Program-made: the position numbers and the translations under genes
Notes under the pieces: generated by a model
Told to the model about the DNA's origin: nothing
The model's input: only the letters and a program-made list of their open reading frames with translations
The model's database searches: none
In this document: piece after piece, positions 8,908-9,168 of the stretch
Numbering within the stretch: the stretch's first letter is position 1
Layout of the letters: each line of letters opens with the position of its first letter
Assembly (NCBI RefSeq): GCF_036365525.1
Contig: NC_090399.1
Coordinates: 32,768,430 to 32,832,429, forward strand
Reading direction: 5' to 3'
Length of the DNA: 64,000 bases
DNA from: Heterodontus francisci
Taxonomy: Eukaryota

Positions 8908-9168
8908 CGCCTGACTGGTTGGACCGGGACATGAGGATCGGAAAGTATTTTTTGAAATACAGTTCCTGCTCCTGTATCAGGAACTTCTTCCGTGCCCAGG
9001 CCTCGGGCCCCTCACTCTCCACCATCCCCTGCTCCCGGGGAATCAACTCATGCCGATCGCTGTCGTACATAACAAACTGGACATCGTCAACATAACCAAC
9101 ACCCACAAACTCCGGGAAACTGGGAATTGGAGTCATGGAAGTGAGGAAATACCGGAGAGAGTGAGAGC
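8908..9168 (-). CDS. MHC class I heavy chain, exon 2 (alpha1 domain), probably non-classical
   Basis: 261 nt, phase 1 at both ends: tttcag|GC TCT CAC ... TCA GGC G|gtaagt. Translation (G)SHSLRYFLTSMTPIPSFPEFVGVGYVDDVQFVMYDSDRHELIPREQGMVESEGPEAWARKKFLIQEQELYFKKYFPILMSRSNQSG has the class I hallmarks GSHSLRY, VGYVDD, EGPExW and the N86 sequon NQS. Confidence 0.95.

Follow-up and report, generated by a model that had tools for sequence, protein, structure and literature searches.

The findings presented here place the MHC class I alpha1 exon at positions 9168-8908 of the window (the whole 64-kb stretch of DNA analysed) in an intact, spliced gene that almost certainly belongs to the shark UBA lineage. 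The protein likely pairs with beta2m on the surface of the cell. It likely presents a restricted peptide set and would hold both peptide ends more loosely than classical class I molecules do; we give this reading as a whole a probability of about 60%. The gene as such is ordinary, being an annotated paralogue in a lineage with GenBank cDNAs. The remaining interest lies in the UBA lineage as a whole, where the putative K63-E163 pair offers a concrete target for the ligand question.

Gene structure and transcripts

The alpha1 exon lies on the minus strand and comprises 261 nt and 87 codons in an open frame, bordered by an acceptor AG at 9170-9169 and a donor GT at 8907-8906. Its top match among solved structures was the nurse shark class I molecule 6LUP, and since this match ran without gaps across 86 residues with an E value of 1.5e-22, the MHC likeness is not due to chance. 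The exon is the second of seven. Exon 1, which encodes the leader peptide, is located on the same strand at 23691-23739 (49 nt, with the ATG at 23739 and a GT donor), where tblastn with the protein gave 100% identity across 17 residues. It is separated from exon 2 by a 14.5-kb intron 1 (9169-23690, minus strand) holding tandem arrays and retroelement remnants. Neither the alpha2 nor the alpha3 exon was found inside the 64-kb window by motif scan and tblastn. This reflects long introns and not exon loss, because both exons were located beyond the window start: intron 2 measures 16.0 kb overall, of which 1-8907 (minus strand) falls in the window, and the remaining exons follow on the minus strand before the first base of the window. 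These are the alpha2 (contig ~32761313-32761041), alpha3 (~32759710-32759447), transmembrane (~32745905-32745798) and short tail (~32745148-32745116) exons, all open with canonical splice ends, and an open last exon with the stop (~32744763-32744717). The downstream exons, whose retrieval the sequence-only reading had proposed as a check, are thus open with canonical splice ends, and the gene is not a pseudogene.

The alpha1, alpha2 and alpha3 exons were 100% identical to RefSeq XP_067865793, a Heterodontus francisci class I-related protein. This record and XP_067865792 ('class I-related gene protein-like') represent the same gene as that of the window and bear no lineage name, so that the present analysis adds the label UBA to a generically named entry; the assignment of exon 2 as the alpha1 domain of a UBA-lineage gene draws on the frame, the structure match, the RefSeq identity and the trees described below. 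The protein matched the Pfam families MHC_I (E 1.5e-45) and C1-set (E 3.4e-14), and the heavy-chain layout was complete, with leader, alpha1, alpha2, alpha3 (C1-set), transmembrane and tail exons in an open frame. An AlphaFold model built with an 87-row alignment showed an ordinary class I fold (pLDDT 83.4), to which the closest solved structure was again 6LUP (TM 0.85 by target length, 55% identity).

Several repeats surround these exons. A 43-bp tandem array of 19.9 copies (9184-10024, unstranded, with a partial copy at 12494-12665) begins 15 bases from the alpha1 acceptor, and a 42-bp array of 4.6 copies (8542-8735, unstranded) lies in intron 2 close to the alpha1 donor. Similarly, a 63-bp array of 12 copies (22934-23690) starts directly at the leader exon donor, and a 35-bp array of about 122 copies, 96% alike, occupies 30513-34778, 6.8 kb upstream of the leader exon. 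At 45287-47947, the two strands carry overlapping frames of 519 codons, one each, both with a weak GIY-YIG match (E 8e-4); they are likely an inverted Penelope-type retroelement.

Transcripts were sought in contigs of public runs, whose RNA nature was guessed from their spliced ends, none being recorded as RNA. Seven runs contained part of the alpha1 exon. The contigs of runs X1-X3, which come from one sample, spanned the alpha1 exon only, with loose ends reading into other exons. Those ending at 8907 carried the opening letters of the alpha2 exon of this gene in three of four runs, and those ending at 9171 carried the final letters of a leader exon in two of four (X1 and X3). As the loose ends consist of leader and alpha2 letters, the contigs are spliced products, and splicing from leader to alpha1 to alpha2 is shown for this gene. 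A 77-nt contig joined to alpha2 had zero differences over 8907-8975, a stretch where each paralogue differs, and gene-specific contig depth reached 3808 in run X1. Transcription, which had also been named as a check, was therefore supported by contigs joining alpha1 to leader and alpha2. Contigs of X1 and X3 also joined a leader exon to the interior of the alpha1 exon of a neighbouring paralogue (contig 32879502-32879759; loose end at window 9049). The first part of that exon was skipped, which represents an alternative acceptor.

Position in the UBA lineage

For the trees, 95 proteins were aligned and three were dropped (two long fused records and one fragment), leaving 92 rows. The nurse shark protein AAC60347 (UniProt O19479) carries the label UBA in supplement file 10 of PMC10751288. 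In the 92-row tree of alpha1-3, the gene fell in a 40-row clade with AAC60347 (support 98/91). Five horn shark relatives, AAC60348 among them, stood beside it, and internal UBA branches were weakly resolved. The gene was likewise found in a 20-row clade (100/97) of an alpha1-only tree of 43 rows, whose bootstrap was not wholly settled, and in an 8-row clade with AAC60347 (100/100) in a 20-row tree. The UAA group was anchored on AAF66110/6LUP, whose alpha1 matches the supplement UAA row by eye, and may include non-classical offshoots. We also take a Triakis sequence to be UAA. When the gene was forced into UAA using eight UAA rows, a list picked after the 92-row tree was seen, lnL was 107 lower (p-AU 3e-55), and a second AU test with two horn shark UAA-type rows gave p-AU 3e-168. 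Identities to AAC60347 for alpha1, alpha2 and alpha3 were 62, 69 and 78%, versus 56, 58 and 53% to nurse shark UAA. The phylogeny suggested by the sequence-only reading thus put the gene with UBA and not with classical UAA in all three trees, with UFA and UGA compared by eye only. The non-classical status that it had proposed was borne out by the rejected UAA placement, and its suggestion of a possibly undescribed lineage had to be dropped, as the gene groups with UBA, whose cDNAs are already in GenBank (AAC60348 from horn shark and AAC60347 from nurse shark). Two further rows lie close to this clade. P0009 (Pristiophorus) is the sister of the 40-row UBA clade, and P0021 (Heptranchias) carries a UBA-like alpha1 that is sister to the UBA clade (100/97) and is placed elsewhere on alpha1-3, a possible domain exchange near the UBA origin.

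Genomic position gave a similar picture. The horn shark genome contained 29 alpha1 matches, eight of them with 76-100% identity at 32.2-42.9 Mb of the same contig. Close paralogues of the gene number at least eight. In the alpha1-only tree, the clade of the gene also took in three divergent copies near 46 Mb, indicating that UBA is multicopy. The class I copies at 32.07-42.85 Mb sit between a complement gene at 31.8 Mb, which has a thioester motif and an acidic stretch with a tetrabasic site at its end, and RXR ligand-domain exons (subtype unspecified) at 44.47 Mb, an interval spanning 12 Mb. From these hallmarks we take the complement gene to be C4; C3, C4 and C5 are not separable by a single complement exon. 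Copies of UAA type lie far from the window gene, at 66-67 Mb. According to section 9 of PMC10751288, the UBA cluster is multicopy, has c4 and rxrb on its flanks and stands apart from the class Ia region, and the position between C4 and RXR therefore supports UBA membership. The generic names offered by databases and the weak internal UBA branches could speak for a class I lineage not yet described, or for a classical UAA allele. This reading has practically no chance: barring a wrong published label on AAC60347, it is refuted by the three trees and two AU tests, and it is further opposed by the alpha3 identities (78% with labelled UBA, 93% with AAC60348), by the synteny and by the separate UAA-type copies.

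Other features of the contig were recorded during this survey. Three thioester complement-type genes are present, at 30.9, 31.8 and 46.07 Mb, with C4 hallmarks read at the 31.8 Mb gene only, and the one at 46.07 Mb adjoins the divergent UBA copies at 46.1-46.6 Mb. The UBA copies at 42.46 and 42.85 Mb had identical alpha1 and alpha2 DNA (0 differences), as the result of a recent duplication or an assembly duplicate, and those at 42.33 and 40.36 Mb both lack 18 nt, in frame, where the alpha1 helix begins. None of the 29 alpha1 matches pairs with a UBA-like alpha2 exon at contig 32071105-32071335. Nine class I copies, nearly identical to one another, lie at 57.4-62.8 Mb and on two small contigs; they resemble the supplement 'UAA-2' row by eye, and the tree places them with catshark proteins, outside UAA and UBA.

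Comparison with named proteins further defined the position of the gene. With nurse shark AAC60347 it shares the supported clade, the absence of Y59, the residues K63, L66, F74, Y77, P79, I143, R146, W156 and E163, the multicopy state and the C4-RXR interval, and it differs by A59 (F in AAC60347), G51 (W), I67 (A), R116 (F), Y159 (F) and an additional alpha3 sequon. The horn shark cDNA AAC60348 (UniProt O19480) and the genomic copies that resemble it (42.46 and 42.85 Mb) are 83% identical overall (84, 73 and 93% by domain), with A59, K63, P79 and I143 in common. However, they represent another paralogue, as 33 of 261 alpha1 bases differ between the window gene and the 42.46 Mb copy, mostly in the helix-coding half. 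Classical UAA (AAF66110, 6LUP) resembles the gene in fold, groove hydropathy and residues Y7, R84, W147, Y159, W167, Y171, I80 and L81, whereas UAA rows keep Y59 (30/32), T143 (31/32) and K146 (27/32) and lack K63 (0/32). The other shark lineages UDA, UEA/UCA, UFA and UGA are, like UBA, non-classical, MHC-linked class I, according to PMC10751288 and PMC12562908; the latter describes UBA as a family that has expanded and derives from UAA, and cites a personal communication for lipid binding by UFA and UGA. A UDA-like protein of the horn shark genome was 36-44% identical to the window gene on a separate long branch, and UEA-like alpha1 exons lay far outside the UBA clade. UFA and UGA, compared by eye with supplement rows, seem far more distant, and the mostly kept anchors of the gene and a groove hydropathy equal to that of nurse shark UAA argue against membership in these CD1-like lineages.

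Lineage-wide and private residues

Residues were numbered after HLA-A2, using the HLA-A2 row in the PMC10751288 supplement. The alpha1 exon encodes Y7, G51, A59, K63, L66, I67, Y73, F74, Y77, P79, I80, L81, R84 and the sequon N86-Q-S. The sequence-only reading had described kept Y7, R84 and N86 sequon, the changes Y59>A and E63>K, G51, unusual helix residues and P79, and all of them were present by this mapping, with G51 in the genome sequence and run contigs without a match to it. The observation of an alpha1 exon with altered residues is therefore confirmed as real. We then counted residues over 40 UBA and 32 UAA rows, with the caveat that related rows are not independent. Y59 was lost in 40/40 UBA rows (A in 21) and kept in 30/32 UAA rows. 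Similarly, K63 was found in 36/39 UBA versus 0/32 UAA rows, L66 in 34/39 versus 1/32, P79 in 31/40 versus 7/32 and Y77 in 16/40 versus 0/32. F74 (23/40 UBA versus 9/32 UAA), I80 (15 versus 14) and L81 (23 versus 21) did not discriminate between the groups. The altered A pocket proposed earlier was supported, and the loss of Y59 and K63 are UBA-wide. In alpha2, the gene has Ile at T143 (Ile in 34/40 UBA rows; T143 changed in 38/40) and Arg at K146 (Arg in 17/40; K146 changed in 35/40), and it retains W147, Y159, W167 and Y171. Of the eight anchors Y7, Y59, R84, T143, K146, W147, Y159 and Y171, it keeps five, with A59, I143 and R146 changed, which is the mode of UBA (5/8, 13 of 33 rows), versus 8/8 in UAA (20 of 31 rows). 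Partial loss of these eight peptide-terminus anchors is presumably part of the published UBA definition. K63 and E163 occurred together in 32/40 UBA rows and 0/32 UAA rows, which suggests a lineage-wide charge pair above the A pocket, replacing the classical Y59/E63 network. The unusual groove residues of the gene are mostly ordinary UBA signature; the comparison separates UBA-wide changes (non-Y59, K63, L66, P79, I143 and E163) from private ones (G51, I67 and the alpha3 sequon). The UBA residues tabulated here may already be described in Almeida 2020, Almeida 2021, Bartl 1997 and their supplements.

The additional N-glycosylation sequon in alpha3 is located at residue 234 of XP_067865793 (contig ~32759600) and was seen in 2/40 UBA and 1/32 UAA rows. 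In mammals, that alpha3 loop contacts CD8 and tapasin. Codon 51 (9026-9028, minus strand) encodes Gly in this genome, a private residue (1/40 UBA rows), and Trp in 38/40 UBA rows and all seven close paralogues. None of the 27 contigs from X1-X3 on 8996-9062 reached 99% likeness or more to the genome sequence, and none of the 13 listed had zero differences, while run X4 had no contig on this stretch and run X5 a single short piece. Because G51 occurs in one UBA row and has no exact run contig, this Gly likely reflects an allele carried by the present haplotype or an error in the assembly, and not a design feature. The contigs best assigned to the gene carried T>A at 9016 and one unlisted difference between 9008 and 9037, and the X2 contig ended exactly where merging with the Trp-coding word of the paralogues would occur. 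Judging from difference counts and contig break points, and not letter by letter, the transcripts likely carry W51, and users of the sequence should be warned that G51 is likely absent from the transcripts seen; an unassembled close paralogue would also explain these contigs. The T>A at window 9016, which is absent from every assembled paralogue, would make Ser54 an unpaired Cys. At codon 67 (Ile, 8975-8977, minus strand), a two-base bubble at 8976-8977 marks the branch point of a second transcript form with two differences, probably encoding Ala. In one sample, the run contigs thus showed two or more transcript forms at codon 67 and the difference at 9016, which suggests some allelic variation in the gene, at the least. 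Class Ib molecules in general have low allelic polymorphism and a restricted tissue expression.

The replacement of a near-invariant Trp by G51 in 1/40 UBA rows, together with Met at T94, the new alpha3 sequon and the presence in the cluster of copies with the 18-nt alpha1 deletion, could point to a decaying paralogue that is transcribed while its function is being lost. We consider this very improbable, given that every exon has an open frame and the splice sites are canonical, the end branch in the 92-row tree is ordinary (0.13), the gene-specific contig depth is that reported above and W51 is likely in the transcripts.

Groove character and probable ligand

Groove hydropathy and side-chain volume were calculated as means over 32 positions taken as groove-facing. 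The gene had a hydropathy of 0.45, versus 0.50 for nurse shark classical UAA, and the group values were 0.47 for UBA (sd 0.44, n=33) and -0.18 for UAA (sd 0.46, n=31). Its volume, 166.6, was near the top of the UBA rows; UAA rows averaged 160.5 (sd 4.6) and reached 171.7. The proposal of the sequence-only reading that the groove is narrowed or hydrophobic is weak for this gene: hydropathy lies above the UAA mean but is close to that of nurse shark UAA, the volume is inside the UAA range, and I80, L81 and F74 also occur in UAA. Of 30 positions taken as beta2m contacts, 20 were equal to nurse shark UAA, including F8, T10, Y27, R48, Q96, D122, P235 and Q242. These kept core contacts suggest that the heavy chain would pair with beta2m at the cell surface. 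The retained Y7, R84, W147, Y159, W167 and Y171 and the UAA-like groove are consistent with a limited peptide set as ligand, both ends of which would be anchored less tightly given the changes at Y59, T143 and K146. The K63-E163 pair may stand in for the Y59/E63 network over the A pocket, and recognition would probably involve innate-like T or NK-type receptors.

PMC10751288 calls the functions of shark class Ib unknown. No study of a UBA ligand or receptor was found in the searchable literature, most subscription papers being outside its reach, and the available parts of PMC6523485 and PMC8236899 contain nothing on shark UBA. Since UBA grooves, taken together, exceed those of UAA in hydropathy, there is room for non-peptide ligands, and a non-standard ligand is possible but doubtful. 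It could consist of peptides that are lipidated or carry a modified N-terminus, or of a small metabolite of aldehyde type trapped by K63, loosely as by MR1 K43. The near-fixed changes across UBA rows at Y59, K63, T143 and K146 fit such a ligand, and MR1 chains ranked high in the fold search. However, the MR1 matches had 38-39% identity and a TM-score below those of 6LUP and chicken class I, indicating general likeness, and they were rejected as a sign of a metabolite ligand. The position near HLA 45, which we take to be the equivalent of MR1 K43, is Leu in 38/40 UBA rows and in the gene, with no lysine there, and K63 is a different position. Moreover, the co-occurrence of K63 with E163 suggests that the lysine forms a salt bridge and is not free to act as a nucleophile, and the gene keeps Y7, Y159, W167, Y171, W147 and R84 with the groove hydropathy of nurse shark UAA. 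In a broader and speculative form, which we regard as unlikely, the whole UBA lineage would have remodelled the A pocket, with Y59 lost and K63 and E163 close to fixation in species ranging from horn shark to sawfish, for a chemically distinct ligand, such as N-modified peptides or a lysine-bound metabolite. If true, UBA would be the shark counterpart of H2-M3 or MR1, independently arisen from classical class I, and this expressed copy would be a test case.

Bulky residues at 66, 73, 74, 77, 116 and 156, the high groove volume and the additional sequon in the CD8/tapasin loop of alpha3 would also fit an empty or closed groove, as in a stress ligand or receptor-type molecule like MIC or HFE. 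This is rather improbable, because classical rows attain greater volumes (170-172), five anchors are retained and groove positions vary strongly among paralogues, which fits ligand contact better than a sealed groove. Across seven paralogues, dN was 0.369 at groove codons versus 0.121 at other codons, and dN/dS was 0.58 over 37 groove codons and 0.40 over 139 others. Positive selection on the groove codons of these seven paralogues was not shown, with dN exceeding dS in 5% of 300 bootstraps, and the raised dS at groove codons points to patchwork exchange.
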